A stretch of DNA of 64,000 nucleotides, taken from positions 8,484 to 72,483 of the forward strand of contig JBEPZY010000008.1 of the NCBI GenBank assembly GCA_041640595.1, given 5' to 3'. A model generated the notes under the pieces. That model did not search any database. It saw nothing but the letters and a program-made list of their open reading frames with translations, and had not been told where the DNA came from. This DNA comes from Gemmatales bacterium. Its GTDB lineage: Bacteria; Planctomycetota; Planctomycetia; Gemmatales; HRBIN36. Below, piece by piece: positions 12,844-61,783 of the stretch (positions are counted from its first letter, which is position 1; every line of letters starts with the position of its first letter). Both the position numbers and the translations under genes were made by a program.

Positions 12844-13210
12844 GGGGCCATCGTTATTGGGGGTGCGGTGATGGAGTCTGGCAAAACTTTCTGTCGAAGC
12901 GGCGGGTAGGGGGCCAACGTTATTGGGGAGTGGGGCGTACCGGAAATTGCGGCAGCTCCGGGGTTCGCGGGGTTCGGCGAGGGGTTCGCCGGGGAGTGGG
13001 GCGTACCGGAAATTGCGGCAGCTCACCCACGTCGATGCCGTGGGGCCAATGTTATTGGGGACTGGGGGCTTGTTCGACAAGATTGAATCTATTTCTCCGA
13101 TTTGTAGGGGGCCATCGTTATTGGGGAGTGGGGTGGTGGAATGATTCGCGCGTCTATGTACGCCGCAAGTAATCAGCGCCATCGTTATTGGGGGGGTAGG
13201 GTGGTGGAGC
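12844..13210. repeat. Degenerate 66-bp-period repeat array, consensus GGGGCCAWCGTTATTGGGGAGTGGGG, 6 units
   Basis: GTTATT core at 12853, 12919, 13051, 13117 and 13184, plus a half-unit (GGGGAGTGGGG) at 12991. Spacings are 66,66,66,66,67. Confidence 0.85.
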
Positions 13211-13398
13211 GGGATAAGTGTGTGCTAGTCAGGCACGGGTAACGGGAAGTCCGTGCCCGAAATGGGTAGTGTGTCGCGGTCCGTGAACGGTGCCGGGAAA
13301 TGGTTAGTCGGTGGCCGGTCGTGCCGGGGAATTAGCGATGCTTTCGCAACGAGGAATTGAATCCGTGACCGGTGGCTGGGACTTTCGTGACCGGGGGC

Positions 13399-13496
13399 GT
13401 GGAGGAGCGGGATGAGTGAGTGTGATGAACGCTGAATAACGACGCCGGGGAACACGCCCATTGCAGGTGGCGGAACGAGATGAGTGAGTGCGATGA
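13399..13496. repeat. Direct repeat pair, 30 bp (26/30 identical), 38-bp interval
   Basis: gtggaggagcgggatgagtgagtgtgatga (13399) and gtggcggaacgagatgagtgagtgcgatga (13467). A related copy lies at 13201, 198 bp (3x66) upstream. Confidence 0.75.
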
Positions 13497-13675
13497 GGTC
13501 TGCCAAACGGACACGGGATGTGCTGGAACGGAATTGCGCATGATAGTTTTTGGTCGTCGTATGCGAGACTTTGTAAGCGGATAGAGGATGAAACCGTGGC
13601 GAGCGGAAAGAAGTACGGAAGCGGCCAATTTGCGAAAGCGAAAGTACGATAGGGGCGACCAGGATGGTGCGAATT

Positions 13676-13939
13676 TCAAATGATGGGACTGGTGTCGGCT
13701 TTATTGCGTCCGAGGATTTCCTTCTTGACCCAGCGAGCATCGCGGAGGATGTAGAAGTAAACGGAATCGCGGTCTGGCTGAAGGAGGTCTTGCAGGCCGA
13801 GTTTGACAGCTTGCAACTGGGAATAAGTAAGCTCTCCTTCGAAAGCGGAGTTTTGTACCCAGTGCAAATAGCGGCGGAGGAATTGACAGACCTTGGCGAC
13901 GCGTTCCTGCTCGATGTCGTAAACGAGAATGACATACAT
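13676..13939 (-). CDS. cas2: CRISPR-associated endonuclease Cas2
   Basis: 87 aa starting MYVILVYDI, with WVQNSAFEGEL and DSVYFY motifs; directly downstream of cas1. Confidence 0.97.
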   Translation of the reverse strand: MYVILVYDIEQERVAKVCQFLRRYLHWVQNSAFEGELTYSQLQAVKLGLQDLLQPDRDSVYFYILRDARWVKKEILGRNKADTSPII

Positions 13940-13956
13940 GGCAGTGTACCTCGCGG

Positions 13957-15225
13957 TTACCACCAGGCGCGAAGGGCCTGATAAGGTTCGATGCCAAGTA
14001 AGTGGCGTACCAGTTTATAGCATTCCAGTCGAATGAAGCCACGGTAGGAGACGTGGCGAGCCAGGCGACGGTGTTTGACAGTGGTTTGCAATCGGCGTTC
14101 AAACTCCTGTACTATGGTTTTGCGGGCGCGTTCCTTAAGTGCGGCGAAGGCTAGATCCCGCACGAGATCTGCTTCGCTAATCATCTGACGATTGATGAGC
14201 GTGAAAATCATCTTATCCACAATGAGTGGCTTGAAAATCTCAGCGAGGTCCAGCGCTAACGAGAAACGGCGAGTAGCAGGTTCGTGCAGGTAGGAAATGG
14301 CAGGGTGCAAGGGAGTGTGGTAGATTTGCGAAAGAACGGCACTATAAAGGAGCGAATTGCCAAAGCTGAGCAAGGTATTGACCAGGTTATCAGGCGGCCG
14401 CTTCACCCGCTTCAGGAAAGGCGTCTCTAATTGCAGGATTTCGTTGAAAGCCTGGTAGTAGGCTTCGCGTAATCTTCCTTCTGCACCCATAAGGGCGGCG
14501 ATAGAGTCGGCCTGGTCAATTTCAGCGGCGGCCTGGTCGAAGGAAGAAATTGCCGCTTCGACGGCTTTGCCACGGTTGCGATAGTACAAGAGATTGCGTC
14601 GCAGATTATGGCAGGCGCCGCGGGCTATTTCGCGGGCAATGACGAGGCGTTTGCTGGCGTCTGTGTAGTGCTCGACCTGCCGGACGAGCAGGTGTCCCGA
14701 AACGTTCGTTTGACGGGGACAAAAGGAGCCGCTGTAAAAGCCGTAGTAGTTGAAAATATGGATCGGGATAGCTTTCTGGGCCAGGAAATTGAGTAGCCTG
14801 GTGTTGAAAGAAAGTTCACCAAAGACAAAGATTTCAGCGACGTCTTCGACGGGAATGATTCGCCTTGCCGCCGGGGGTGAGCCTGGCGAGTCATTTTGCG
14901 AACCGGCCGAGGAATCGGGCGGAGGCGGGGGAACGTTGTGCGTTTCTGTCCGTGTAAGATCGCCGGTCATCTCCGCTTGCGGTACTTCCCGACAGCAAGC
15001 GGTATCGGTTTGTGACGGTGCAGGATCGCTTGTCGCCTCAGGTTCATGAATTTGCCCAGCGGTTTCCTGTTCGTCTGTTGGTGCAGAATCGCAGGAGGAC
15101 CGCTCTGTCGGCGAAGCGGAGGATTCTTCAGTGTCCGGGGAGTTGCTTGAAGCCCACTCCAGATATAGTGTGTTGCCTTTCCGCCGTAACCGTCCGCTCT
15201 GGAAAATGTAATAGCTTCGTGCCAT
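13957..15225 (-). CDS. cas1: Type I-B Cas1 with a ~95-aa low-complexity insertion near the N-terminus
   Basis: Motifs SYYIFQSGRLRRKGNTLYLE, FNYYGFYSGSF, LMGAEG, RPPDNLVNTLLSFGN, SYLHEP, LDLAEIFKP and a C-terminal WW. Start placed at ATG 15225 by similarity to typical I-B Cas1 N-termini. Confidence 0.97.
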   Translation of the reverse strand: MARSYYIFQSGRLRRKGNTLYLEWASSNSPDTEESSASPTERSSCDSAPTDEQETAGQIHEPEATSDPAPSQTDTACCREVPQAEMTGDLTRTETHNVPPPPPDSSAGSQNDSPGSPPAARRIIPVEDVAEIFVFGELSFNTRLLNFLAQKAIPIHIFNYYGFYSGSFCPRQTNVSGHLLVRQVEHYTDASKRLVIAREIARGACHNLRRNLLYYRNRGKAVEAAISSFDQAAAEIDQADSIAALMGAEGRLREAYYQAFNEILQLETPFLKRVKRPPDNLVNTLLSFGNSLLYSAVLSQIYHTPLHPAISYLHEPATRRFSLALDLAEIFKPLIVDKMIFTLINRQMISEADLVRDLAFAALKERARKTIVQEFERRLQTTVKHRRLARHVSYRGFIRLECYKLVRHLLGIEPYQALRAWW

Positions 15226-15408
15226 GACGGAACCATCCATTCGCAGCGGTATGGAAAAGATTCCCAGCGGGCTTGATTGCCCGATGGCCAACGCTGTCTC
15301 TTTTTCCAGGTGCGAAAATAGGGCTTGGGGCACTCCATGCCGGGCTAAGCCGAAGTACGTAGTCGGCGTTCCGGGTTTCCTGCATGGCCGTGGGGATTGT
15401 TGACTAAT

Positions 15409-15978
15409 TCATCCCCAGCAGAGCTCAGCGTATGCACAGGAGCGACAGAGGGGCATAAATTCGACCAGCGGAGGTACAGGAAGCTGTTCGATGCGGCGGA
15501 TGTCGCGCAGAGCCGCTTCTACCTGCCGCTCAGCCGTCTCGTCGAGCAGCACGGATTCGCGCCGCTTTTCGCGTGGAAAACGCAATTCGCCTGTCAGGCC
15601 TGTCACTCCCAGCCGTTTCAGGTAATAAAGATAGTAAAGCACTTGCAGGCGTGCCGCTTCCCGCATGCGGCGGGAGTATTTGACCTCCAGTACCTTCCCG
15701 GAACCCTCTAACAAGTCAATTTTGATAAGGTTGTCTATCAGTAACTCGCGACGGGACTGGCCACGGTAAGCGCGCTGGTGGAGTAAACGCCCAAGAGTCA
15801 CCCGCTCATTCCTGGTTTCCATACGAATGTCGTGGCTGTATAGCCAGAGTTTCTTCTGACATATCACGTAGTAATTCACCTTGATACCGTTGGTGCGCAG
15901 AGATTCAAACTCTTCGTCGGTGAGCGTCCCGGGTTGCTGAGAAGAAAAATCGAGTTGATCCATGCTAAGTAACTCCAT
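15409..15978 (-). CDS. cas4: CRISPR-associated exonuclease Cas4
   Basis: YYVICQKKLW, KIDLLE, EVKYS, QVLYYLYYLK and C-terminal CRSCAYAELCW Fe-S cysteines. Start codon uncertain (15978 or 15963). Confidence 0.96.
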   Translation of the reverse strand: MELLSMDQLDFSSQQPGTLTDEEFESLRTNGIKVNYYVICQKKLWLYSHDIRMETRNERVTLGRLLHQRAYRGQSRRELLIDNLIKIDLLEGSGKVLEVKYSRRMREAARLQVLYYLYYLKRLGVTGLTGELRFPREKRRESVLLDETAERQVEAALRDIRRIEQLPVPPLVEFMPLCRSCAYAELCWG

Positions 15979-16224
15979 GAGTTGCGCGCCTAGACATTTA
16001 TGCCTATACATGCCCATAAACGGCTCCACCTACTGAGTATTTTATAGTACTCCTGGGCAACCGAATAGCATCGGCAAATTTAGCCCGCACCCTAGCGGCT
16101 CGACTCTACTTTCTTCGGCTAGCATTCCACCGGCGAACCGCGGGCGCACCAGCCCACTATAGCGGGCTTAACTTCGGGTCAGTTCCGGGAAGCGGGAAAA
16201 ACTATCGGTCCCAGCAGTGCTGCG

Positions 16225-16319
16225 ACATAACCTGGATTTCGCCATAATTTTAACTGGGATCGGAAGGCGGCTAGAACACGGCGCGAGCATACATAATCTG
16301 GATTTCGCCATAGGTTTAA
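16225..16319. repeat. Repeat-spacer-repeat unit (29 bp / 37 bp / 29 bp) between cas3 and cas4
   Basis: acataacctggatttcgccataattttaa (16225) and acataatctggatttcgccataggtttaa (16291), 26/29 identical, period exactly 66. Confidence 0.85.
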
Positions 16320-16475
16320 GCCATGCTGTTATAACTCAGCAAGCTATGCTCACTGGGTATGGTTTCACTCGAACCTGGCACTATAAAGCGCTCTATATTG
16401 CGATGCAGGAAGTCAGCCAGAAGTGTTAACGCCGCTCGTGTGTAATAGCGCGAATTAGGGTGGAGCGAAACTGGG

Positions 16476-18656
16476 TTACACAATGGCAACTTGACTCTCG
16501 CCGGAGTCGGAAGGGAACTGCAAACCTAATTCGGAATCATACGGCAGGTAGGTAGCATACGCTCGCAGGTCGGCAATAGCGCAAAACTGCTCCGGAAATT
16601 TGCCGAGCCACCAGATCGGCACAGGTACCAAAAGCTCAGGCAGCCGCCAGGATTCATTTTGTTCCTTGAGCCGGTAGGCTTCCTCGATAAATTGTTCTGG
16701 GAGCACTTCGATAGATACCATCCCCCGCCGTGTGGTAAAGCGCGAGCGCAGTTCATCGTCCGAAAGGTCAATCGTATAGCACCCCAGGATGCGCTGGAGA
16801 TCAGCGACTGTAGCGCGCCCATCGGCAAGCTCTCGTTGCCATTCCTGGCTGGGTACCACACGCTCATAAAGTCGCTGCGTTGCCTCGGCTAAATCCCGAT
16901 CCGTTGGTGTGGGTGGCAACGCTCTAACAATCTCCAAGCTCCAGGCCAATAGCTCCTCTCCATAGACGTATTTAGTTCCTTCTGACCACTGCGTGTAGAT
17001 AATAACGGGTGCGGGAGGTTGCTTTCCTAAACGGTTGACGCGTCCCATTCGTTGTACCAACGCATCGGCCGGTGCTATTTCCGTAATGAGCACATCATAG
17101 GAGATGTCCAGACTCACTTCGACGACCTGAGTGGCAATGAAGATTGTGCCCGGTTGGGCGTGACTAACTTCGTCTTCTTTGGTGGCCCGATCCCGCAAGA
17201 TGAAGCGAGCGTGCAAGAGTGCCAACCTGGGCCAGCCTGATTCCTGTACTATTCGGTAGAAAGTTTGCGCATCACGGATGGTATTGGCAATCACAAGCAC
17301 ACGTTGGCCCTGACGGGCATAGTGAAGGGCTTGTTCGGGGCCTTGCGCTAAGAGGCTGCTCTCTCGGAATTGCATGCGGTGGCGAGTACGCTGCCAAAGC
17401 CCAAGCTCGGCTTCAATAAGTGTTCCACGGGGAAAAAGCCCAAGAAGCGACTCCGGGAGCGTGGCACTGGCTAACGCTAGTCGGGCTGGAGGCTCACTTT
17501 TCAGCGCTTCGAGGAGAAGGCCCAGTGTGTAGGGTTCGTAGGCGTGGATTTCATCCAGTACAACGGTAGCCCGCCGGGCCAGCGTACGACGTTCTTCCCA
17601 ATGACGTCCATGAAGGTGTGCTAGTAGGTATTGGTCGAGCGTGGCCACGGTGACTGGCTTGGCGAAAACCGATCCAAAGAGCCGAGCGTCCAGCGGGTCA
17701 TCGTCAGATTCTTTTCGCAGCAGATAACTTGCCCGTCCGTGGGCGAGTGCCACCTGCTCTTCCCCGTAAATCTTCTGGAGCCGGCGCCACATGGCATTGG
17801 TGGTGGCTTGCGTAGGTAGGAGATACAGCAACCGCTCGGCGTTCCCGGCCCAGAGAAGCAGCGCTTCCGTCTTGCCTGTGCCGGTCGGTGCTCGCAGCCA
17901 AATAACATCTGCGTCCCTGGTGCGTTCAGCGCATAACTGAAACGCACGCGGTGGTTTGTCGAGAGTTCGCAGGTGTGCTTTGACTGCTGAGTCTCCGCTT
18001 TGCAAGAACAACACTGTCGGCTGCAAGCCTTTTGCCGAGGCGAGCCAGTCGGCCAGATGCAACACGGTTTTGACCTGGGCAAACGCCTGCAGAGGCAAGC
18101 CCTGCAAGATGCCCCGCAGCGTTTTGTTTGTGCCATCAAAGGAGAGAGGCATCTCCAGGAGCCCAGCAGGTGAATTCTGTAGCCACTCTTGGAGGGTTCT
18201 CCAGAATTCTCCCACCGATGGCAATCCTTGCACGCCGTGCGACTGAAGCAACTCCCAAACCTGGCGAAGCGCTTGCTCCAGCTCTGGATGGTAAGTGACG
18301 GCTTCGTAGCCTTTATACAACTCCGGTCCTAGCGGCGAATGGTGGGTGAGCACCGCAGCAGTGGCTTCCAGAGCGAGTCGATCCCAGCCGTAATGTTGGG
18401 CAAGTTGAGTTTCGGCAAACAGGATAAAAGGCAACGATGCCAGGGCATGCGGATAGGCTTTTTTTCTCTCCCCTCGGATGTACTTTTGAAAGTCCAGAGT
18501 GCCTTTGCCAATGTCGTGAAACGCGCAGGCGAGCAATGCCTTAACTCGCAACTTTTCTGGCAGGCCTAGCTGGCAGGCAATTTGCAAGCCAAGCGAGGTT
18601 ACCTGTGCGAGATGCTCTATTAGCTCGGCGTCAGGTTTGGCGAGGAGTTGAGCCAT
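16476..18656 (-). CDS. cas3: CRISPR-associated helicase/nuclease Cas3
   Basis: N-terminal HD domain (FHDIGK, THHSPL, LADWLAS), Walker A APTGTGKT, DEIH, SAT, TQVVEVSLDI and QRMGRVNR. Confidence 0.97.
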   Translation of the reverse strand: MAQLLAKPDAELIEHLAQVTSLGLQIACQLGLPEKLRVKALLACAFHDIGKGTLDFQKYIRGERKKAYPHALASLPFILFAETQLAQHYGWDRLALEATAAVLTHHSPLGPELYKGYEAVTYHPELEQALRQVWELLQSHGVQGLPSVGEFWRTLQEWLQNSPAGLLEMPLSFDGTNKTLRGILQGLPLQAFAQVKTVLHLADWLASAKGLQPTVLFLQSGDSAVKAHLRTLDKPPRAFQLCAERTRDADVIWLRAPTGTGKTEALLLWAGNAERLLYLLPTQATTNAMWRRLQKIYGEEQVALAHGRASYLLRKESDDDPLDARLFGSVFAKPVTVATLDQYLLAHLHGRHWEERRTLARRATVVLDEIHAYEPYTLGLLLEALKSEPPARLALASATLPESLLGLFPRGTLIEAELGLWQRTRHRMQFRESSLLAQGPEQALHYARQGQRVLVIANTIRDAQTFYRIVQESGWPRLALLHARFILRDRATKEDEVSHAQPGTIFIATQVVEVSLDISYDVLITEIAPADALVQRMGRVNRLGKQPPAPVIIYTQWSEGTKYVYGEELLAWSLEIVRALPPTPTDRDLAEATQRLYERVVPSQEWQRELADGRATVADLQRILGCYTIDLSDDELRSRFTTRRGMVSIEVLPEQFIEEAYRLKEQNESWRLPELLVPVPIWWLGKFPEQFCAIADLRAYATYLPYDSELGLQFPSDSGESQVAIV

Positions 18657-19357
18657 GTGAAATTTCTTCCATGCCAGTGTAATGCTGGTACCCCAGGCAC
18701 TTCCAGTTCCAGACCGGGTGCAAGGAAGCTCAGTGGAACAGGCGATTCCGGTTGTCGAATGCCTTTGGTATCCACACGAAAACGCAAAGGGAGAGTTTCT
18801 ATGACAGGGGGATCAAACTGCGCTCCGGGTTTCAGGATAGGACGAGCGTCGGGGTGTTTGCGAATATCTATTGGCAGCACAGTGCCCCGGAAACGAGGTA
18901 AACCTTGCGAAGCCTCGGTCAACTGTGATATTTCTTCAACCAGCAGCATTTCGTCCTCCCGACCCAGGGAAAGAGGATATACGGGGTCTTGGAAGGCGTT
19001 TTTTAGTTTGTCCAGCAAGGATGCGTCAGCTCCGTAGAGCAGCGTGTAGCGTGGGAAAAAGAGCAACTCACGGAAATAGGGCGAGCGTTCAGCGATCTTG
19101 CCAGACTTTATCTTGAGCACCGTCCACATGTCGCGAGCACGTCCGGGCTCTTCCTCAATCCATACTGAGACCTTCAGGTTGCTGAGCAAGCTTTTCGGGG
19201 ACCAGAGATCGCGATCGGAAAGGCCCAGCGCTGCACCTGCGATACCCAAAAGCGTGGTAGGTGGCGGCATCGGAAGTGTCCGCTGGTAGTTGTGGTCCAG
19301 CGGTCGCCGGAAGGACGCTACCGTGGCACATACACGAACGGCTACGATTAGCTCCAT
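18620..19357 (-). CDS. cas5: Type I-B Cas5
   Basis: ASFRRP...TLPMPPPTTLLGIAGAALG and SLGRED motifs; between cas7 and cas3. Confidence 0.93.
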   Translation of the reverse strand: MELIVAVRVCATVASFRRPLDHNYQRTLPMPPPTTLLGIAGAALGLSDRDLWSPKSLLSNLKVSVWIEEEPGRARDMWTVLKIKSGKIAERSPYFRELLFFPRYTLLYGADASLLDKLKNAFQDPVYPLSLGREDEMLLVEEISQLTEASQGLPRFRGTVLPIDIRKHPDARPILKPGAQFDPPVIETLPLRFRVDTKGIRQPESPVPLSFLAPGLELEVPGVPALHWHGRNFTWLNSSPNLTPS

Positions 19358-20265: not shown

Positions 20266-20266
20266 G

Positions 20267-21667: not shown

Positions 21668-21679
21668 CGAATGATCTCG

Positions 21680-21913
21680 CTACGTGCTACGGTCAAAAAT
21701 ACAAACTTCCCCGGTAACGGGGGAGAAGTACAGAACCGGTTCGCCACGCCATGCAGAACGTGTGCAATGGTCAAGTACATCCAGACTGGAGTCTGTCCGG
21801 TTGAGCACGATCTCAGTCCCTCGGCCAGTCAGTTCCTTGGCGTGTTCGATGTAGCGCGGCAGTTCGTTTAACCATGCAGTGTCCGGATAGAAGGCGCGCT
21901 AGTCGACGGCCAC
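21680..21913 (-). pseudogene. csx3: Csx3-like (Crn3 ring nuclease family) pseudogene
   Basis: Manual translation: VAVD*RAFYPDTAWLNELPRYIEHAKELTGRGTEIVL /+1/ TGQTPVWMYLTIAHVLHGVANR /-1/ LYFSPVTGEVCIFDRST*. This fits the short Csx3 pattern LTG..PVWxYLxIAHxLHG...SPVTGxVxIFD. One in-frame TAG and two compensating frameshifts. Not in the ORF track. Confidence 0.75.
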
Positions 21914-22039
21914 GCAGGCACCAGGCAAGACGACAACGGGTACCAAGTTAACCAGTGCCCGGAGTTTCTGCGGAACCCTGCTGCTGGATGTGTTTGCGAC
22001 CCACCAGTGCCGAGTAAAGCTGTGCGCGGAGTTTCTGCC

Positions 22040-22263
22040 ACCTGATCGCCGAGTTTGACCAGCAGCATTTCCACATACCTGGGTTCCGACTCGGAGGCAC
22101 GGGAATTCTTCGCCTTTTCCGTCACGAAAACGATGACCTTCTCCGGCTCAAAAACCCGCGCCAAGGCTTCCGGGAAGAGGCGGGTCGTGTGGGAGCGCTC
22201 TTCCCACACATAAGTCACCGCCTCGTACCTGCCGGCGCCCACGAAGGAAAAGGCTTTCACCAT
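22040..22263 (-). pseudogene. 5' fragment (~73 codons) of a TM1812/Csx1-like DxTHG-family CARF protein
   Basis: MVKAFSFVGAGRYEAVTYVW...TRLFPEALARVFEPEKVIVFVTEKAK is a typical N-terminus. Similarity ends before the DxTHG motif and the frame runs through unrelated sequence to 21868. Confidence 0.8.
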
Positions 22264-22308
22264 AGGTTACTCTCCTGAGTATTTCGCTCGTCTCATGGTC
22301 TCAAGAAT

Positions 22309-22362
22309 CTATCGAGCATTGGTAAGAAGCGAGGTGCCTACAGTGACTAAGACGGTGCGCAT
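22309..22362 (-). pseudogene. 17-codon remnant of an APE2256-like CARF gene
   Basis: Strong RBS AAGGAGG, then MRTVLVTVGTSLLTNAR*. TVGTSLLxN is the characteristic N-terminal motif of APE2256/Csm6-type CARF domains. Confidence 0.65.
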
Positions 22363-22392
22363 ATATCCTCCTTCGTTCTCATCGTCTTCTCT

Positions 22393-23223: not shown

Positions 23224-23226
23224 AGG

Positions 23227-29572: not shown

Positions 29573-29761
29573 TCAGGCACTTTTGCCACCCTGCCGCAGC
29601 AGCTCCTCGGCAAAGGCGGCGGCGATTCCGCTCGTCAGCACCAGGTGCTCGTACAGCGAAATCCGGCCGACTCGACCATCGGCCAGAAGGTAACTTTCCT
29701 GGCCCAGCGATTCTTCAAATTCCCGGTGAAAACTCGCTACAAGTTCTTCCAGGTCGCTCAT
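29573..29761 (-). pseudogene. Short fragment resembling a Cas10-family N-terminal region
   Basis: 62 aa containing LADGRVGRISLYEHLVLTSGIAAA, comparable to the Cas10 motif ISLYxHLxxTxAIA (Cmr2 here has PADTRQPDHPLEQHLSISAAIA). Ends 20 bp before cmr1. Confidence 0.5.
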
Positions 29762-30252
29762 GCTTTCCGCCCATTTCGACGAATGCCGTTCGCAGTCAGC
29801 TCTGCGGACTGCAATTCCTTTTTCCAGCGGTTGACGCTGGCCACGATCACAGGCCCGACGCTTCTGGAGCATATCTTCATTCACGGCTCCCTTTCGTTTC
29901 ACCTGGTTACCGTGGATTCGGGCCGAACGTGCTCCTTGATTTCAGGAAGAGTCAGAAAGACCTCCGCACGATGTTTCGCGTCGCCAGTCTGAAGCAACAC
30001 CACCAGCCGCGTATGTCCCTAGCGATTTTCTGGCTCAACGGACTCGCCAAAGGTAACTGATGCGATCCCGGTGATTTACCACGCGGGTGGGCCACAAAGG
30101 ATGTTGTGAACACGGGCGACATCGGTGGCATCCTCGTTTGGTGCATTTTACACGGTTGCTATACTTGTATTCGAGAATCCAAACCGCGGCAATGGTCAAC
30201 ACTCGATTTTGTCTCTGATTGGCACAATGGCGACCGGCCGCGGAAACGGCAG

Positions 30253-30545
30253 CTATGGACGCCACCGGTTGGGAACCTGCCCGGGCTTCTTCCCCATTGG
30301 TATTTATCGCACAGTAACTACGGACGCCGCCGGTTGGGAATCTGCCTCAGCTTCCTCTCGTGGCTCGACGACCTGTTCGCGCCTATGGGATGCCACCGGT
30401 TCGGAATCTACCCCAGCAGTGCCTACGACCAGACTCGCCGGGGTCAACGACGCAAGCACGATATCCCGGTTTGGGAATCTACTCCCAGCAGTGCCTACGA
30501 CCAGACGTGCCAAGGTCAGCAGCGGAAGGAAGATGTCCCGGTTTC
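30253..30545. repeat. Degenerate repeat array, ~30-bp unit CTAYGGACGCCRCCGGTTGGGAAYCTGCC, periods 65/66/71/72
   Basis: GGAAYCT core at 30272, 30337, 30403 and 30474. The first two intervals are distinct 35-mers; later units share cagcagtgcctacgaccagac. Confidence 0.75.
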
Positions 30546-30839
30546 GCGGCTGATGGTGTGTGGCAACTTGTTCCCGTGCCGTGTGCAGATTCCCCAGTGG
30601 CCGTGCAATGACGAAATGGCAACTCGCAATCGGCATGTCCACGTGCTTGGGCAGGTGCACAGAGTGCGGTGTGGAGATAGGCCGGGCGCCGTGTAATGAC
30701 AAAAGCGCGGCTCGCCATCTGCAGGCCAAAGCGTTGGCGCAGGTGTGTCCGCAGCAGTTGGCGGCTAATGCGGGCTATGGTGCGGAGTGCGTTCCCGAGT
30801 TGTGTCGGGAGCGGTGGCGGGTAAGCAGTTGGATACCGC

Positions 30840-31387
30840 TGGCGGTGCGTAGTCGGAATGGTCAAGTGCAATCCCACCGTTGGAGGGCGTGGTCAATGAC
30901 CCATGTTCCGATGTGGCAGCGTCTGGTCGGAAAGGCCAAGTGCAATCACCGCCTGCGGCTCCGGCTTCGGCCAACCAGGCACCCCGCTGGCAGTGTCTCG
31001 TCGGAATGGCCAAGTGCAATCACACCGTTGGAGGCCGTGGTCAATGACCCATGTTCCGAAGTGGCAGTGTCTGGTCGGAAAGGCCAAGTGCAATCACCGC
31101 CTGGGGCTTCGGCTTCGGCCAACCAGGCATCCCGCTGGCAGCGTCTCGTCGGAATGGCCAAGTGCAATCACACCGTTGGAGGGCGTGGTCAATGACCCAT
31201 GTTCCGAGGTGGCAGCGTCTGGTCGGAAAGGGCAAGTGCAATCACCGCCTGCGGCTCCGGCTTCGGCCAACCAGCCACCCCGCTGGCAGTGTCTGATCGG
31301 AATGGCCAAGTGCAATCCCACCGTTGGAGGGCGTGGTCAATGACCCATGTTTCGAGGTGGCAGCGTCTGGACGGAAAGGGCAAGTGC
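30840..31387. repeat. 74-bp-period array: 8 copies of a ~36-bp core with two alternating ~38-bp intervals (148-bp higher-order repeat)
   Basis: caagtgc at 30863, 30937, 31011, 31085, 31159, 31233, 31307 and 31381, all exactly 74 apart. Core TGGCAGYGTCTSGTCGGAAWGGCCAAGTGCAATC. Confidence 0.95.
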
Positions 31388-31500
31388 GAGGCCGCTAGCG
31401 TTTCCCGATGAGGGAGATGCCCAAAGTGTACCGTTCGCGTTGCCAGGCGGAATCGCTGCTAAGTGAGCTGAAGCGAACCACCGGCTCGCAATTGACGGCC

Positions 31501-31659
31501 CGGCGGGAGAAGATGTTGAACAATAAGCAAGGTCTCGTAAATCGTGGATGCATTGTAATCGATCCACCAGCCACCAAGAGTTGAACAATAAACGAGTTCT
31601 CGTGAATCATAAGTTTCGCGGTGTCTCGCCGCGCGGCGGGAGAAGACGTTGAACAATAA
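31501..31659. repeat. Three copies of a GTTGAACAATAA-containing repeat, periods 65 and 68
   Basis: gttgaacaataa at 31515, 31580 and 31648. Copies 1 and 3 share cggcgggagaagaygttgaacaataa. Confidence 0.8.
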
Positions 31660-31937
31660 CCGGCCCTGCGCGTGCTGGCCCACCCCGTTCGCCGCTATTG
31701 GCCGCTAGTTCCCGCCGCACGCAACTATATTTTCGACAGAGCAGCCGCGATTCCACGGCGTCATCAGACGCATGGCGGGTGCCGGACACCTTTTGCGAAA
31801 AATTTTTGCGAACAGAATTGTCCTCTTGAGACGGCCGCGGATTTTTGATAAAAGCAAGTTCAGCGGCCCAATTCAGCATCACGTCCACGTTCTAAAGGAG
31901 ACACAACTATGAGCACGCTCTACTTCGCCGACGGTGT

Positions 31938-35485: not shown

Positions 35486-35812
35486 CGCAGGTGATACCTC
35501 CGGGTGGAGTAAGCACGCGTCGGATTAGTGAAGCGATGCAGGTAAGCAATTCCTAAACTGTAACCGTTTGTGTAGGACCCGTATCGGGACCCAGCATATC
35601 CTGAAAGGATGCAGGCAAGGAATTCCTCAACCTGGAAATGCTCACCAGTCAACGGCAGCTCCGGCCCAACAGTCACCGGCAGCGATGGAAGCAAGCGACT
35701 CGTCAAGCTGGAAATGCTTACCCAGCTAATCACCGCCGGCTAATTGTTGGCACCGAGATGTAAGCGGTGCACTTTGTATGCAAGTGTTTTGGTACGGGCC
35801 GGGGGGGTATTG

Positions 35813-35998
35813 TCGTAACTGCTCAGCTCGGGCGGGAAGCATTCGGCAGGCCTTGTGGCGACGTCTGGCAGAGTAATTTGGCGCGGCCGTAACCAGTCAG
35901 CCTATCCGGGAAGCATTTGGCAGGATGCCCCGATTCGTCCGAGAATATCCTAATCTTCGTCCGTAACCGGTTAGCCCATCGGGGAAGCATTCGGCAGG
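35813..35998. repeat. Three 38-bp repeats separated by two unique 36-bp intervals (period 74)
   Basis: ycgtaac...gggaagcattyggcagg at 35813, 35887 and 35961. Confidence 0.85.
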
Positions 35999-36280
35999 GC
36001 CGTCCCCGAACGGTTCCGCAGTGAAGCTGTTTGCTTCGTTATCGCTGTAAAAGCTCTCGCAGGGCTGTCCCATAACCGTTCGGTAGTGAAGAAAGGAGCT
36101 GCTGGCGTGAGTTCTGTGACCGGGATGCTTGTTGCGGTTTTTGTTTTTGGGAGCAGAGTCTCCTGTCTCCGGGGGCTGCAGGAGGTACGCCTATAGCGAC
36201 ATAACTCCTCCGAGAAGCCCAGCAGCTACCGCCAGGGCTGCCGGGAGCCGGCAGGAGGTAAGCCTATCGAGACGGATGCT
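35994..36280. repeat. Two further direct-repeat pairs (periods 65 and 73)
   Basis: gcagggcygtccc...gtgaag at 35994/36059; gcaggaggtamgcctat at 36178/36251. Confidence 0.65.
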
Positions 36281-51722: not shown

Positions 51723-51729
51723 CTTTGCG

Positions 51730-51759: not shown

Positions 51760-51851
51760 GATTTGCTGCCTACCGTCGCGGAGATGGAAAGCCTGACCGG
51801 ATGAGCCAGTGACCAAAGTCCCGGCCCGAACCTGCCAGGGATGAGCAAAAG

Positions 51852-53072: not shown

Positions 53073-53191
53073 CAGACGGGTTTCGTCTGCATGTGCATAG
53101 AACCGTGTTTCATCGGCTGACGCGAAGACACCATTTGCGTGCGTAGTTTGTTCTCCAGCGTAAGGGGCTGTGCCTCTGCGATACAATTGCG

Positions 53192-56100: not shown

Positions 56101-56899
56101 AAAGTGCGTCCAGTCGCTTTCGTTGCCGAAGCAATTCCTGTTCCTGCTGCTGCAAGCGTAATTGCTCGTGCTGGAGCTGTTCTTGTTGCTGGAGCAAAGT
56201 TTGCCGGTCGGCTTCCAAAGCAGCAAGGGCCTGTTGCAATCTGTCCCGGGCCTGGGTTAAATCCTGTTGCTGACGCTGCAGCTCCTCAGCTCTGCGATTC
56301 AGCTGGGCAAGCTCCTGCTCGGCTTCGTGACGCCATTGCTGCCGTTCCTGCTCGAATTGCCGCTGCTGCTCCTGCAACCATTGCACCGCTTCCAAAACGG
56401 AACGAGGCCAGACCGTCGGCACCGCCGGCAACATCTGTACAGCCTGGCCGGAAGTTTCGCCGGATGGCGTGTGCGAAACGGAAGAATCGGGTCGAACCCA
56501 TTCCGCCTCGATCATCAATGGGCCAATGCTCACCTGACAGGGCGGAACTGCGAAGAGTTGCCTGCCGTCTGGGTGATCGCCTTCGACCAGGCTGTTGGGA
56601 ACCGAATCCGTCGCGCAGTGGGGCGACCAGTCGGGGTGGAGTCGGCGTATGAGCAGCCCGGCAGATTCGGCGAGCATAACTGCGGCCAGCGCGGGAGAAC
56701 CGGACAGACGAATATCGCATTCGGCGGCGCTACCAATCAGCAAACCGCCGGGCAGGGACAATTCCAGCGTGCCGGAGTGCTGGTCGGCATAGCGCCAGCG
56801 GAGGCGCAGACGCCAGCCGAGGCTCTGCCCCGAAGGCTTGTTGCTCACTCCTGGCGAATGGATGACGCCGGCCTTCTCCGGAGCCGGCCGGTCGGCCAT
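53192..56899 (-). CDS. Large coiled-coil protein with an FHA-like N-terminus and a C-terminal degenerate Ser/Thr kinase-like domain
   Basis: LIGSAAECDIRL, ~750 aa of Q/E/R/L heptads, then LQHPNLAR, LVEWIDG, AHEAGLAHGHLHAGRLLL, LKVCGLG, DLRALG. RBS AAGGAG before ATG 56899. Confidence 0.85.
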   Translation of the reverse strand: MADRPAPEKAGVIHSPGVSNKPSGQSLGWRLRLRWRYADQHSGTLELSLPGGLLIGSAAECDIRLSGSPALAAVMLAESAGLLIRRLHPDWSPHCATDSVPNSLVEGDHPDGRQLFAVPPCQVSIGPLMIEAEWVRPDSSVSHTPSGETSGQAVQMLPAVPTVWPRSVLEAVQWLQEQQRQFEQERQQWRHEAEQELAQLNRRAEELQRQQQDLTQARDRLQQALAALEADRQTLLQQQEQLQHEQLRLQQQEQELLRQRKRLDALYQHRRDHLRALRESVRRAAAKVQREKRQLASELESFRQQQQSFAQQYREYEAAVEQLRQQQQRLDEERRLVAEWQAELEQELQTRQQQLDSLQRELAEKQQQLAADVARLHEDALQLERLRSDLLNQQQQLHERSRQLQELGQQLSAREQACRAQENALAQRQTELDNLSRQLEERQQQLHEREQALHERQCHLEQHQALFVAARTRLERLRAQLLEREQELLALRERLDEQEQNLASASRRLLQEKLAWQQEQAVWQSRLEAIETRSRELEQAQQQLRQHQQELQNQQNRLERAEWELEEHTVAQTQTAIVLRMLARQYAWKRRRLKHQLRQLARRHATLIQREQDLAERQQHWQHQQQLLAEQTRQLQAQQQQLADERQRLDQEKQTWLEQQRNWQQHQQATQAELAERQRTLEQREQALAQQLEDLLRQHRELRQQRDELTRQQQQLQAEQAQLQQQRDQWEQAVRQWQQQLPILAGQARELLQKISQARNVLREQLDELHAYAKEVRTARERAWQELQEYAQRLRQQEQALALAQTEHRHALAAFRQQLSEWRAQVQEWKSALARNESQLAQKQAELEHQAVQLQQASSRLAQEAEHLAEARRIVSAQQSELERQLLDLQSWYRRKLRELAGKKLLTIAEDSETPSLSTASPADLQLAEQLLTAEVIDRPTLAALLADARRRECSLRDLLLEGEYLSAFQLEMIEANRLDALLAGRLRILDRLRLTPLETIYRVFDPESGSEGLLRHLSAAVEEPRRQEYRESFQRAVPLQHPNLARTREVFDWQGSPAVLVEWIDGVPGPEWQEFAAVPAVWLRLVHQAAAGLNAAHEAGLAHGHLHAGRLLLTENGELKVCGLGEPLWLFPEHSTEEPEDLRLADLRALGRIAMSWLKAGPQWKRETDNPYRSICERLLGRAEPPYSKIADLLADLEQLLAEHSQDGLAAWEHLLVFLRERLHPGSVTLARSA

Positions 56900-57109
56900 T
56901 ACCCACTCCTTGACCGCGCGGTTAAGTTCCTGGCGAGCCAAAACGGCTTCGCCGCCGGCGGTTATAACTTCGTTTCGGAAATGCGGCAAGGCGGCTTTTG
57001 GCGAGTGTCGCCAGCCATGAACAGCGCAACGACTACCACCCAATCAGCACCGGCCAGCCGCGTATGCCGAAAACTCACCAGCGGCCGGCCGGCGATTGGG
57101 GAAGGCGTC

Positions 57110-58699
57110 TTACAAATGGTTCAGGAACACCAGCAGATCCGCCAGTTCCTGCCGGGAAAGTTCATGGGCCCGACCGTGGCGCCGCTGGAGATTATGTTTC
57201 GTGAAAACTTCTTCGAGCGTAGCCGCCCGACCATCATGAAGATACGGTGCAGTGAGACGCAAACCCCGTAGCGATGGGGTGTCGAATCGGCTTTCATAAA
57301 CGTCGCCGGTACCCACATCATGCGTCAAACCGTCCTGGTAGGTGTCGGGGCGATGGCAGCGAGCGCAGTCCGCTTTGCCGAAAAACAATGCTCGACCCCG
57401 CTGGTAGGCAGCCTGTTTTTCCGCAGGCACAGTTGCCGGCGGCGGTGGAGGCAACGAAGCGACATACGCAACAAGTGCGGAAAGTTCTTCGGCAGTCGGC
57501 TCATAACGGTGTGTAGTGCGGAGTGTGCCGGCAATACGGTCAGCCAGTGTCGGCGAACTGCCCAGCCAGCCATAGGGGGCAGTATCGCGGCAACCCCATA
57601 GCGCACGGGTATTCTTGGGATTACCGACGCCGTCACGGGGCAGATCCCAGTTGAGGCTATCCGCTCCCCCACCGGGATGGCAACTGGCGCAACTGAACTG
57701 TCCGTGCTGCGTCAGCCGCGCGGAGTGAAACAGGATTTCACCTCGTCGAATCACGTCGGGTTTCGGACCACCCAGAGCAATATGTCTCACCAGGCGCATT
57801 CCCGCCGTATCCATCACGGTCAGGGAATCGCTTAGAAAATTGCTGGCGACCAACGTTCGTCCATCTGGCGAAAGGGCCAGGCGTCGGGGATTGCTCTCGG
57901 TTGGAATGCGGGCCAGCACCAGCCAGCGAGAGGACGTAAGATCATCGCGGCGCAAGTAGGGATTCAGTCGGCTGTCAGCGGGTTCTGCGACGACACGCGA
58001 AGCCACTCGGGGGAATTGCCGCAGATCAATCACCGCTACGCAATCGCTGCCCGCCGACGCAATGTACGCTCTCTGCCCGTCGTCTGACACCACGATGTCG
58101 CTGGGATCAGCGAATCCGTGTTCCGGTTCGTCGAGCGCAGCCGTTTCCCACATGTAACCCACCTGCCCTGTCCAGCGCGTCAACCCGCTGGTGAAAACCC
58201 AGCCCTGATTGAGTTGCGTAGCCGGCAGAGAAAACCTCGGCCAGGTGTGTACCATCCAGCCGGATTCGGGCCGACCCCAGAGAGCCCGAATCGGTCCGGC
58301 TCGCGGTGGCTGCAACTGCGATACCAGCCCTCGCAATTCCTGCTGATGAACGACCGGCTCATTCGGGCGGGACTCTTCCCGGTCTGGAGGCCATTTCTCC
58401 CTGGCCAGTATCCGACCCGCCACCAGGTCCACAGTGACCGTTTCCCGCGTACCGGTCAATTCGACCTGTACCTGCGTGGCGCCCACAAACCGCACCGTCA
58501 GGGGATTCAAGTAGGCCGGTCTGCTGGAGTGAGCGGGATCGCTTGCCGCAGGCCCGGCCCCGCCGGTTGCTGCATACAGGCACACCATCCCGACGGCCAG
58601 CCAAACCGCCTTTCTGGCCACCGATCGCACAGTGCTCCGAATCAGGCATTCGCGCCGCCTCATGTCTGACTCTCCAACATCCGGCCGCGATGGTGCCAT
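57110..58699 (-). CDS. Secreted YVTN-like beta-propeller plus di-heme cytochrome c (CCP/MauG-like) protein
   Basis: Two heme motifs, CASCH and CARCH; DTPSLRGL...APYLHDG; NPRRLALSPDG. Start uncertain. Confidence 0.88.
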   Translation of the reverse strand: MAPSRPDVGESDMRRRECLIRSTVRSVARKAVWLAVGMVCLYAATGGAGPAASDPAHSSRPAYLNPLTVRFVGATQVQVELTGTRETVTVDLVAGRILAREKWPPDREESRPNEPVVHQQELRGLVSQLQPPRAGPIRALWGRPESGWMVHTWPRFSLPATQLNQGWVFTSGLTRWTGQVGYMWETAALDEPEHGFADPSDIVVSDDGQRAYIASAGSDCVAVIDLRQFPRVASRVVAEPADSRLNPYLRRDDLTSSRWLVLARIPTESNPRRLALSPDGRTLVASNFLSDSLTVMDTAGMRLVRHIALGGPKPDVIRRGEILFHSARLTQHGQFSCASCHPGGGADSLNWDLPRDGVGNPKNTRALWGCRDTAPYGWLGSSPTLADRIAGTLRTTHRYEPTAEELSALVAYVASLPPPPPATVPAEKQAAYQRGRALFFGKADCARCHRPDTYQDGLTHDVGTGDVYESRFDTPSLRGLRLTAPYLHDGRAATLEEVFTKHNLQRRHGRAHELSRQELADLLVFLNHL

Positions 58700-58719
58700 T
58701 GTATGGGTTGCCGATGCGT

Positions 58720-59967
58720 TTATCGAGTCGCGTCTTCGCCCCGGTATAGAGAATCGCCGACGACCGTGTAACGAACACGCAAACGGTCAGTCGCCACGTC
58801 GAAGAGGACGAAATTGGCCGGCTGCCCGACCACAAATCCCGGTACCGGCATACCGAACAGAACGCGGGGTTGTGTCACGGCCAGGGAAATGGCTTCGCTC
58901 AAGGCGATCTCACCATCCTGCCAAGCACGGAAAATACACGTATCCAGAAACGAGCACGCTCCGGCCAGCAGATTTCCTCCGCGTTCATCCACGACGACAG
59001 CGCGACCACTGGGCGTAACCTCAATCGTAGTGTTCCAGAGCTGATAGCGACCAGCAGGCAGACCGGCCAGCGGACTGGCGTCGCTGACCAGCAAACAACG
59101 TTGCGGCGTTTTGCAACGCAGGATGCATTTAATGACCGCCGCGGGCAGATGGTGACCATCGGCGATCAAACTGGCCCACAACGGATCGGCGGCCAGCTGA
59201 TCCCACAGATAGTTCGGATGTCGCGGCAAGAGTAAATCGCAGCCGTTGCCCAGGTGAGTGCATAAACGCGCCCCGGCACGAATGGCGTCGCAGATCTGCT
59301 CAGCGCTGGCCTGATGGTGTCCTAAGGCCACGATGATCCCCTGTTCGACCAGCCAGGAGATGAAATCGCATACACCAGGCCAGTGAGGAGACAACGTAAC
59401 CATGCGGATTCGACCTTCGGCTGCCTCCTGGAGACGGCGAAACTCGTCCTGGTTCGGTGGGCGAATGTGTTCGGCTGGGTGCGCGCCTCGCGGCCCCGGT
59501 GCCGGGCAAATGTAAGGCCCTTCGAGATGAAAGCCGATAACGGCCTGGCGGATTGTCTCATCCTGCTGTGCCGCCAGTGCCAGGGTTCGCAGGGCTGCGG
59601 TTAGCGTTACTTCATCGCTGGTGATGACGGTTGGGCACAGCATAGTCGTGCCGTGTTGGTGACATAGCTCTGTCACCGCCCGCACCTGCTCGATCGTCAA
59701 GTGTCGCGACGTAAAGTTGTGGCCGAGGGCACCGTTGATCTGAACGTCGCAAAAACCGGGAGCGATGTATTCCGCTTCCAGCACTGTCCCAGCGCTTTCC
59801 GCCGGCGAGGCACTGTCGGCCAGGCGAGATGCTTGCGGGAATGCGTTTTCAGCGCCCGGAGCAAGCTCGGGAAAACGTGGCCGCAACTGTGCAACTTTTC
59901 CGTCGCGCACAACGATTTCGACCGGCTGACCAGTGTCATAGCGCTTGCCGCGCAGCCTCACGCTCAT
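58720..59967 (-). CDS. nagA: N-acetylglucosamine-6-phosphate deacetylase family amidohydrolase
   Basis: PGFCDVQING, HLEGPYI, RGAHP, THLGNG, IADGHHL, LVSDA, LAGA. Confidence 0.88.
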   Translation of the reverse strand: MSVRLRGKRYDTGQPVEIVVRDGKVAQLRPRFPELAPGAENAFPQASRLADSASPAESAGTVLEAEYIAPGFCDVQINGALGHNFTSRHLTIEQVRAVTELCHQHGTTMLCPTVITSDEVTLTAALRTLALAAQQDETIRQAVIGFHLEGPYICPAPGPRGAHPAEHIRPPNQDEFRRLQEAAEGRIRMVTLSPHWPGVCDFISWLVEQGIIVALGHHQASAEQICDAIRAGARLCTHLGNGCDLLLPRHPNYLWDQLAADPLWASLIADGHHLPAAVIKCILRCKTPQRCLLVSDASPLAGLPAGRYQLWNTTIEVTPSGRAVVVDERGGNLLAGACSFLDTCIFRAWQDGEIALSEAISLAVTQPRVLFGMPVPGFVVGQPANFVLFDVATDRLRVRYTVVGDSLYRGEDATR

Positions 59968-60091
59968 AGCCCATTCCTGACAGCAGTCTTCGCCTGGTGC
60001 GAGCCAGCGCCCGTTCACGGTGACCGGCAAGTTGTCACCAGCAAACCGCCGGCATAATTACGGTTACTGGCCCGGTCGCCAGCCGATGTTC

Positions 60092-61642
60092 CTACTCCCA
60101 TTCAATAGTGGCCGGGGGCTTGCTGCTGATGTCATAGACAACGCGATTGACGCCCCTGACTTCGTTGATAATTCGGGTGGCCACGTGGGCGAGAAAATCA
60201 TGCGGCAATCGAGCCCAGTCGGCGGTCATGAAATCTTCAGTGGTCACGGCTCGCAAAGCCACGACGTTTTCGTAGGTGCGATAATCGCCCATGACGCCGA
60301 CCGATTGCACTGGTAACAACACGGCAAAAGCCTGGGCCACCTGGCGGTATAATCCGGTTTTTTTGAGTTCCTCCAGGAAAATGCTGTCCGCCTCGCGGAG
60401 AATAGCGAGCCGCTCTGCGGTCACTTCGCCCAGGCATCGCACCGCCAATCCTGGTCCGGGAAATGGGTGCCGCCAGACCAGCCGTTCTGGTAGGCCGAGT
60501 TCGATGCCCAGTTGTCGAACTTCGTCCTTGAAGAGGTCGCGCAAAGGTTCGAGAAGTTCGAAACCCAGTTCGGCAGGGAGTCCGCCGACATTGTGGTGAG
60601 TCTTAATCGTCGAAGCCGGGCTGTTCGCGTTTCCCCCGCTTTCGATCACGTCGGGGTAGATCGTGCCCTGGGCCAGGAATTTCGCCCCGGGAATGCGGCG
60701 GGCTTCTTCCTTGAAAACTTCGATGAAGACGTGGCCAATAATGCGGCGTTTTTCCTGCGGATCGGTCACACCCCGTAATGCGCCAAGGAACCGTTCCTGG
60801 GCGTTGACGATGTGCAGGTCAGCATGAAACGATTGGCCGAAAGTTTGCCGCACTGCTTCGACTTCGCCTTTGCGTAAGAGGCCGTTGTCCACGAAAATGC
60901 AGGCCACCTGGGGACCAACAGCCTTCAGCAACAAAGCCGCGGTTACCGAGGAATCCACGCCGCCGGACAACCCGCAAATAACCCGGTGAGGGCCAACGCG
61001 CTGACGCAACTGCTGCACTGTCGCTTCAATGAACGATGCCATCTGCCACAGACCCTGGCAACCGCAAATCGAATAGAGGAAATTGCGAAGAATCTGGCGA
61101 CCGTGTTCGGTATGGGCAACTTCGGGGTGAAACTGCAGGCCGTAAATCGGACGCTGACGATGGCGAACCGCAGCAATGGGACATTGCGGTGTGCTCGCCA
61201 GTGAGACGAAATCTTCGCTGACGCGCACCACTTGATCGCCGTGGCTCATCCAGACAACACTCTGTGAAGGCAGGCCCTCCAGCAACGGGTCGCTGGTTAG
61301 AAACCGACAGGGAGTTCGCCCAAACTCGCGGGTGGGTACGGGTTCGACCACGCCTCCCAGGGCCTGACACAGCAATTGCATACCGTAACAAATCCCCAGA
61401 ATCGGGATGTTCAATTGCCACAACGCCGGATCGCAACGGGGAGCATTCGGCTCGTAAACACTGGCCGGGCCACCGGAAAGAATGATGCCTTTCGGAGCCA
61501 GAGCGGCGATTTCAGCGGCAGGGGTGTCGTAGCGGACGATTTGCGAGTAAACGTGCTGCTCGCGCACACGTCGGGCGATCAGTTGTACATACTGCGAACC
61601 GAAGTCCAAAATGACCACACGTTCCCGAATCGGCTCCATCAT
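60092..61642 (-). CDS. guaA: GMP synthase (glutamine-hydrolysing)
   Basis: [46 protein letters not shown]. Confidence 0.98.
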
Positions 61643-61697
61643 ACCGGCATTTTACGCATGGGTATGGACCAGTGCGGCAAGCTTGCAACCGCTCCCG

Positions 61698-61783
61698 GCC
61701 GGCTTGTGTCGTAGCCAATATACATGCGGAAAGCCAGGAACAGATGCGATTATCGCCGTTCGAGCCGGCTTGCGTCGTAGCCA
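61698..61783. repeat. 20-bp direct repeat pair, period 66
   Basis: gccggcttgygtcgtagcca at 61698 and 61764, in the intergenic region upstream of guaA. Confidence 0.7.

Follow-up and report, generated by a model that had tools for sequence, protein, structure and literature searches.

In a window of 64,000 bp, the whole stretch of DNA analysed here (contig JBEPZY010000008.1 of the Gemmatales bacterium assembly GCA_041640595.1, forward-strand positions 8,484 to 72,483), a true CRISPR array and its cas genes are accompanied by stray units, each consisting of a direct repeat peculiar to its own site and a unique interval of spacer length between the repeat copies. These units are very probably the fossil products of off-target (ectopic) integration by two Cas1-Cas2 modules resident in the genome. 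The case is carried by demonstrated features, namely the geometry of the units, their site-specific repeats, empty paralogues, a few insert origins, their scarcity in long open reading frames and the connection with the modules in related genomes; from these we infer the enzymatic agent, the order of events and the neutrality of the units. Off-target integration has been known from over-expression and test-tube work, and the present genome bears on its natural frequency and traces.

The units can be divided into two classes according to their dimensions. Class A comprises duplications of about 30 bp around a unique insert of about 36 bp, and class B duplications of about 37 bp around an insert of about 37 bp. 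A scan of the 51.4 kb of the window outside the true array for gapless direct repeats (score of at least 12, lags of 10-300) yielded 15 repeats at lags 65-68 and 13 at lags 72-76; the remaining approximately 280 lags together gave about 30 repeats, the majority of them at multiples of 66 or 74. With the repeats taken as 30 or 37 bp, the intervals measure 35-39 bp, except in the tandem stretch of the site at 30253, where two measure 42 bp. The intervals are mutually unrelated, with the exception of the 72-bp duplication at 30412-30544 and the alternating intervals in 30840-31394. All eleven sites listed by an earlier sequence-only reading of the window were recovered with the periods given there and with coordinates agreeing within about 15 bp (for example 31515 for a site listed at 31501), and two more were found (12676 and 35535).

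The phenomenon is genome-wide and not particular to the window. The genome sequence (4.45 Mb in 42 contigs, from a metagenome-type source) was scanned with the four true arrays left out, a unit being defined as a repeat of 20-42 bp at one of 13 target lags (64-69 and 71-77), and 60 further lags served as controls. This census resulted in 433 units at 293 loci, corresponding to 33 per target lag versus 2.77 per control lag, and thus in an approximately 12-fold excess. Two or more units are present at 75 of the loci, and both classes at 33. The isolated pairs numbered 12, 35, 19, 7 and 5 at lags 65 to 69 and 9, 20, 25, 17 and 3 at lags 72 to 76, compared with 14 in all at lags 40-59, and their excess amounts to approximately 20- to 70-fold according to the control lags chosen. 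The repeat length has its maximum at about 30-32 bp for lags 65-68 and at about 37-39 bp for lags 72-76.

Both classes have a counterpart among the true arrays. Array 1, located in the window, has a measured period of 65-69 bp and spacers of 35-40 bp with a mode of 36, in agreement with the period of about 66 bp and the spacers of about 36 bp that had been read from the window; array 2 and the adaptation genes directly before it, referred to as module 2, are located on contig C1 (Table 1; positions outside the window are given as contig:position). Exactly two matches each to cas1 and cas2 were obtained in the genome, and the reverse transcriptase of module 2 is its sole RVT_1 match. The duplication lengths equal the resident repeat lengths, with a box of identity of about 30 bp at lags 65-68 and of about 37 bp at lags 72-76 for true repeats of 30 and 37 bp. 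Likewise, the lag modes of the isolated pairs (66 and 74) equal the period modes of the arrays (66 and 74), with similar spreads. Given two cas1/cas2 sets and two arrays, the two stray classes thus mirror the resident arrays in repeat length as well as in spacer length. The 72-76-bp class belongs to the second, 37-bp-repeat array elsewhere in the genome, which was beyond the reach of a reading confined to the window.

The average over isolated units revealed an identity at the unit's own lag of 80-95% over the core of the repeat box and of 25-30%, the background level, outside it on both sides. This background is reached within a few positions of the box edge, and the tail at the far edge is due to the pooling of shorter detected repeats. 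The box-shaped identity indicates that the intervals are neither decayed tandem copies nor diverged copies of their flanks. Moreover, the repeats are specific to their sites, 163 of 211 having no more than two occurrences in the genome. Only two of the 211 are high-copy repeats, one of which lies within a dispersed family resembling repetitive extragenic palindromic (REP) sequences, the other resembling the true CRISPR repeat, whose copies inside the arrays were counted. The one shared repeat of a functional array is not found among the stray units: each locus has its own repeat, present in 1-8 repeats per locus, with copies that differ by 0-8 mismatches. The REP-like family has the hairpin core GGCGGGCGTCAGCCCGCC and occurs in hundreds of copies, which are frequently paired at distances of 87-93 bp and contained in units of about 120 bp (for example at C2:308524, C2:309407 and C5:119896); it is a frequent target with many empty paralogues. 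The peak that it causes at lags 87-93 is separate from the peaks of the units and was rejected as a third class, since it represents a single dispersed hairpin family of identical sequence everywhere.

Empty paralogues, which contain one repeat copy and no interval, were detected for 19 of the 433 units (at least one paralogue each), and four were confirmed by alignment. The clearest of them is located in the window, where a single copy of a 38-bp sequence at 29800-29837 represents the empty form of a class B unit located at C3:417921; the flanking identity amounts to 97.5%, and the filled locus contains a 38-39-bp sequence twice with 36 extra bases between the copies. Another family comprises two paralogues that differ in the interval inserted at one and the same 30-bp target, a sequence starting with GT, and a third paralogue that is empty; this argues for independent hits on a preferred site. 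A comparison with close relatives for empty alleles had been suggested by the sequence-only reading; the expectation held for paralogues inside the genome and not for relatives, in which no empty allele was found. Within the genus, genes share only 72-78% identity, and the units lie in unalignable gaps, so that insertion is demonstrated against paralogues only.

The origin of the inserts could be traced in a few cases. A match elsewhere in the genome was found for 32 of 211 intervals, mostly in paralogues of the same unit. Over 31 nt, with one mismatch and a shift of 2 nt, the interval at C2:174386 coincides with a true spacer of array 1, and the intervals of the paralogous units C2:407699 and C3:561426 match the contig C15 in 28 of 30 nt. 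The interval at 12706-12743 of the window is 100% identical over 38 nt to C1:622934-622971, a site without flanking repeats, and this insert is therefore self-derived. An additional interval matches a second chromosomal site with two mismatches in 36 nt, and the 23S rRNA gene contains matches to two intervals, one from each class. The match to that gene (C5:166219-170885; locus L110, 6220-10886) extends over 4667 bases compared with the 2925 positions of the model, and the extra 1.7 kb or so might represent an intervening sequence or an intron. Three exact 30-nt scans of young inserts against viral contigs gave no match.

The contig C15 (locus L109) comprises 9585 bp with compact open reading frames mostly on one strand. 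It received 39 matches from true spacers, nearly all of array 1 and many with 100% identity; the matched sites show the protospacer-adjacent motif (PAM) 5'-CCN in 29 of 39 cases and a strand bias of 33:6, as in primed adaptation. Searches of nine C15 proteins against PHROGs gave no match and no relatives of one C15 protein were found in viral contigs; the contig is probably a virus or plasmid of no known kind that was binned with the genome. A CCG motif is located beside the C15 source of the mini-array at C3:328836, which consists of two degenerate copies of the true 30-bp repeat around a C15-matching spacer and, among the loci outside the true arrays with a traceable source, is alone in having a CCN-type PAM. 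In this one locus the stray units resemble orphan mini-CRISPR arrays, from which they otherwise differ in that their repeats are unrelated to the true repeat (mean of 11.8 of 30 positions) and mostly confined to one or two places.

Four relatives, which as kin are not independent, were sampled with 171-396 kb each. The same-genus genome G003 (171 kb), with both cas1 types and arrays of 30-bp and 37-bp repeats, showed both classes in 13 and 9 matches, of which 3 and 2, respectively, are located in true arrays. The same-genus genome G002 (393 kb), with one cas1 and a 37-bp-repeat array, contained no match at lags 65-68 and two class B loci. Nothing convincing was detected in 270 kb of G010, a member of the same family without a cas1 match, and 396 kb of G004, a cas1-containing member of another genus, contained at most one candidate unit. 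Overall, the unit classes follow the cas1 modules among these relatives, and a high unit load seems characteristic of part of the genus. These data, along with those presented above, support the earlier suggestion of a natural record of promiscuous spacer integration. None of the four contrary observations named with that suggestion was made: lags 65-75 stand out from other lags, the intervals are distinct from their flanks, the repeats do not form a genome-wide REP family, and the pattern was not found in the sampled DNA of the relative without detected cas1.

According to the mechanism that we propose, the strand transfers at an ectopic target would be staggered by the repeat length of the acting module itself, 30 bp for module 1 (cas1-cas2-cas4) and 37 bp for module 2 (cas2, reverse transcriptase and cas1 on contig C1). 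Each event would insert a prespacer of the usual size (about 36 or 37 bp), and the subsequent gap repair would duplicate the target, giving rise to a site-specific repeat, a unique interval and a second repeat with a period of 65-68 or 72-76 bp. A new pseudo-repeat could be hit again, which would generate neo-arrays of 2-6 units, and the flanking direct repeats would permit unequal recombination, by which a unit could be amplified into a tandem repeat of the same period. Integration would favour targets starting with G or GT, like the true repeats. Among the class A repeats (n=102), 36% have GT at one or both ends, and among those of class B (n=104) 31%, versus 11% of random places, an approximately threefold enrichment, and both true repeats have GT at an end. 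The units would survive chiefly in non-coding DNA, and they are depleted from long open reading frames: frames of at least 200 amino acids from stop to stop cover 85.2% of the genome, yet no more than 28 of 102 units of class A and 35 of 109 of class B are fully contained in such a frame. The detectable inserted DNA amounts to about 30 kb, or 2.7% of the DNA outside these frames.

Several observations weigh against this interpretation or limit its reach. Background alone should account for about 36 of the 433 units, and some of the entries at lag 72 are coding tandem repeats of a leucine-rich-repeat-like kind. For the three ectopic inserts that could be traced, few as they are, no CCN motif was observed beside the source. 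An orthologous empty allele was not found in the same-genus genomes, in four other metagenome runs or in metagenome records. The likeness of class A targets to the true repeat is small, with a mean best match of 11.8 of 30 positions versus 11.0 for random non-coding DNA (p of about 1e-5), and class B targets show no overall likeness to the repeat of array 2 (p=0.11). Among the relatives, the contigs of G003 were chosen from earlier matches and are biased to repeat-rich DNA, and G004 possesses cas1 and yet at most one candidate, which indicates that the presence of Cas1 is not sufficient. Finally, the repeat pairs differ by 0-8 mismatches, with class A counts of 7, 13, 27, 24, 20 and 11 at 0 to 5 mismatches; with few perfect and mostly diverged pairs, the evidence stops short of ongoing activity.

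The missing PAM beside the traceable inserts, together with the circumstance that the role of Cas1-Cas2 was read from the sequence, leaves some room for another integrase or mobile element that makes target duplications of 30 and 37 bp around short inserts. This is improbable, as such an agent would need two rulers coinciding with both repeat lengths and both spacer-length distributions, and the inserts share no sequence, hence no carried element. Furthermore, some inserts overlap a true spacer or the targeted element C15, and the classes in the relatives follow the cas1 types. To our knowledge, no other integrase gives rise to duplications of such length around inserts of about 36 bp, which likewise counts against this explanation.

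A different interpretation concerns the units inside the cas locus (16225, 21950 and 12676-13496), which are situated in cas intergenic gaps and beside the leader, and of which that at 16225 has a repeat ending in TTTTAAC, loosely like ATTGAAAC. Regulators of the CreTA/CreR type, which resemble CRISPR RNA (crRNA), exist, and their flanking pseudo-repeats resemble the true repeat, especially in the handles. The units in the cas locus could accordingly be functional crRNA-like mini-arrays that regulate or guard the cas genes rather than neutral scars. This has little probability, since units of the same type are present at about 290 loci unrelated to cas genes and since their likeness to the true repeat (11.8 versus 11.0 of 30) is barely above random.

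Whole-unit tandem repeats are present at some loci, namely at 30412-30544 (72 bp), at 30840-31394 (148 bp) and at C5:155330-156323, with about 45 such loci in all, and those of the genome also favour periods of 66-67 and 72-76 bp. One might therefore take the units for tandem duplications of the ordinary kind, or for satellites, with a period of about 66 or 74 bp in which the interval halves decayed faster than the repeat halves. The identity of isolated units, however, drops from about 85-90% to 25-30% over a few positions around base 30 or base 37, and this profile has already largely refuted an explanation by decay. In addition, empty paralogues lack exactly one repeat plus the interval, and two different intervals occupy one target in two paralogues. 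An origin by tandem decay is thus very improbable, and the whole-unit tandems are better read as a later amplification of integrated units, which would have proceeded by unequal exchange between repeat copies. The locus at C5:155330-156323 contains two whole-unit tandem repeats with periods of 73-76 bp and adjoins cas6 (C5:156811-157164), the only full cas6 match of the genome, which is distant from both arrays; it was rejected as a further array since it represents a whole-unit tandem repeat.

Chance matches or an assembly artefact, which the 42-contig assembly from a metagenome-type source might bring to mind, have a practically negligible probability and are already refuted by the 12-fold excess per lag over the control lags and by filled sites in independent contigs of four other runs and in two metagenome records. 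The contigs of these four public metagenome runs (hot springs, microbial mat and fresh water) contain filled sites wherever they span them. The bacterium is a planctomycete of hot springs and is present in many hot-spring samples, from 14 studies. Reads and contigs of the runs were compared over C4:283000-302000 by means of the best-supported joints and gaps: contigs span filled sites at positions 724, 5191, 12834 and 17242 of this region and break near 2510-2960, where they are uninformative, and no joint or gap of 65-77 bp was present among the matches listed (14 further gaps and 109 further joints lie beyond them). A metagenome scan with the neo-repeat of C4:325468 returned two records, both filled, and a metagenome record with flanks diverged by about 3.5% holds a unit whose repeats are perfect in the genome studied here. 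The units are therefore real and mostly older than present strain diversity.

The stray sites of the window, the empty target and the two array and adaptation loci are compiled in Table 1. Within the neo-array at 12844-13204, units 2 and 3 have an extra stretch of 34 bp in common, which represents a partial internal duplication. The site at 21950-22046 is the weakest of the window. The first copy of the unit at 35994 overlaps the last repeat of the class B array at 35813-35997, which indicates serial insertions. We read the site at 30840-31394 as a two-spacer ectopic array that was amplified later; a paralogue with fewer units is located at C1:329452-329624. The 2.4 kb upstream of cmr1 (29595-31937) represent one copy of a multi-copy non-coding element that contains the site at 30253 and was struck repeatedly by both classes. 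The element gave no match in Rfam; its counterpart at C3:417716-419414 matches it at 94-97%, and parts of it recur at C1:321296-321927, C1:329353-329961 and C2:80229-80461.

Table 1. Stray units, empty target, true arrays and cas genes; coordinates refer to the window unless a contig is given
Feature	Position	Strand	Description
Class A unit, absent from the sequence-only list	12676..12772		diverged pair of about 30 bp, 12676/12743, lag 67
Class A neo-array	12844..13204		six GGGGCCATCGTTATTGGGGAGTGGGG-like repeats at a period of 66-67, enclosing five intervals (36-37 bp)
Class A unit	13399..13496		13399/13467, lag 68, 30-bp pair with 4 mismatches, 38-bp interval
Class A unit, cas4-cas3 gap	16225..16320		16225/16291, lag 66, 30-bp pair, 36-bp interval
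Class A unit, gap between I-B and III-B sets	21950..22046		about 21950/22017, clear core of 17 bp, lag 67, 37-bp interval if repeat is 30 bp
Empty target site	29800..29837		single copy of 38-bp sequence; filled class B paralogue at C3:417921
Class A site	30253..30544		repeats 30253/30318/30384, lags 65-66, intervals of 35 and 36 bp (30253-30413), then 72-bp whole-unit tandem duplication 30412-30544
Class B site	30840..31394		37-bp repeats (eight copies, period 74) with seven intervals of 37 bp, two kinds in alternation (148-bp higher-order tandem repeat)
Class A site	31515..31677		three repeats (31515/31580/31648) beginning GTTGAACAATAA, lags 65 and 68, intervals of 35 and 38 bp
Class B site, absent from the sequence-only list	35535..35720		35535/35608/35684, 37-bp repeats at lags 73 and 76, interval lengths 36 and 39 bp
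Class B site	35813..35997		35813/35887/35961, 37-bp repeats, lag 74, two 37-bp intervals
Class A unit	35994..36088		35994/36059, pair of 30-33 bp, lag 65
Class B unit	36170..36279		about 36170/36243, clear core of 17 bp, lag 73, 36-bp interval if repeat is 37 bp
Class A unit just past the GMP synthase start (gene on minus strand)	61695..61790		about 61695/61761, 20-bp core, lag 66, 36-bp interval
True CRISPR array 1	4..12597	-	190 perfect 30-bp repeats, extends past window start
Non-coding stretch, array to cas2	12598..13723		leader, then three ectopic sites
Module 1 adaptation genes	13724..16029	-	cas2 13724-13939, cas1 13957-15333, cas4 15409-16029
Type I-B set of the window		-	cas3, cas5, cas7 and a gene of 466 amino acids without family match
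Type III-B set of the window		-	cmr6, cmr5, cmr4, cmr3, cas10/cmr2, cmr1
True array 2	C1:359749-377935		247 copies of 37-bp repeat; spacers 33-40 bp, mode 37
Module 2	C1:356211-359618 (locus L006 16212-19618)		cas2, open reading frame of 101 amino acids, group-II-intron-like reverse transcriptase of 550 amino acids, cas1; directly before array 2

The reverse complement of the array 1 repeat has the 3' end ATTGAAAC, and the C15-matching spacers with CCN are those nearest to 12597. Accordingly, array 1 is read on the minus strand, its leader is located on the high-coordinate side from 12598 onward, and the array has been active. The repeats of arrays 1 and 2 both end in ATTGAAAC, so that the Cmr complex specified in the window may serve both arrays. 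No effector genes adjoin module 2. The cas2 gene of module 1 was placed on the minus strand by a search with PF09827. The longest open reading frame of cas1 comprises 458 amino acids, of which the Cas1 models cover residues 156-458 only; either the start lies further in, or the protein has an N-terminal extension of about 155 amino acids without a family match. Apart from one tRNA, no known RNA family was detected in the non-coding DNA of the window. A third kind of 30-bp repeat, GTTTCAATACCACACTGGTTCAATTAAAAG, with a period of 67-70 bp is present on a small contig (C20:1210-1581) and may originate from another organism or a plasmid.

The closest known case is the off-target integration that spawned new arrays in Escherichia coli, with circumstantial evidence in two other species (Nivala, Shipman and Church 2018, Nat Microbiol 3:310, according to the passages that cite it in bioRxiv 10.1101/148544, PMC7054753 and PMC6698737); bioRxiv 10.1101/148544 calls the frequency of such events unclear. 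In those accounts, as in the present genome, an insert of spacer length and a duplication of repeat length arise at a non-CRISPR site, and repeated hits lead to small new arrays with a repeat of their own. The E. coli work, as far as these passages describe it, used an over-expressed type I-E Cas1-Cas2 in the laboratory, whereas about 400 units occur naturally in one genome here, derive from two modules with different rulers, one of them associated with a reverse transcriptase, and are diverged, common to strains and in some cases amplified in tandem. Work on Pyrococcus furiosus Cas1-Cas2 in vitro (Grainy et al. 2019, PMC6698737) reports integration at non-CRISPR sites spaced 30 bp apart, the repeat length, and a preference for G at the integration point and for G1/T2 of the repeat. 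The repeat-length spacing is shared with the present units, and the G1/T2 preference agrees with the approximately threefold enrichment of GT described above, whereas that work concerns half-site or full-site strand transfers by purified proteins on plasmids and the units described here are inherited genomic insertions. Ectopic spacer acquisition inside the CRISPR1 and CRISPR3 arrays of Streptococcus thermophilus, as described in PMC7999890 and PMC5338259, is similar in that a spacer enters elsewhere than at the leader-proximal repeat, and different in that those events use a true array repeat instead of unrelated DNA. Judged from titles and abstracts, the papers found on neo-CRISPR and off-target spacers describe no natural genome with many such units. 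The mechanism is of a known kind; new, as far as our literature searches show, are the scale at which it occurs in nature, the presence of two rulers within a single genome, the participation of a module associated with a reverse transcriptase and the later amplification.

About 400 natural events made with two rulers render it testable what the integrase recognises without the guidance of a leader or a repeat. The same data bear on the unfiltered spectrum of uptake, on the birth of arrays and satellite repeats and on the fitness cost that limits adaptation, and the signature of a repeat-length duplication around a spacer-length insert can be applied as a genome scan to all CRISPR-bearing genomes. 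With respect to the genus, we tentatively propose, with a confidence somewhat short of even, that ectopic Cas1-Cas2 integration, including that by the module associated with a reverse transcriptase, may be a quantitatively relevant and long-running source of intergenic DNA, of tandem repeats of 66 and 74 bp and of seed arrays. Since stray units are not used for interference, they would then constitute an archive, free of selection, of the material acquired by the adaptation machinery, and this archive would include pieces derived from self DNA and rRNA, which true arrays are unable to retain.

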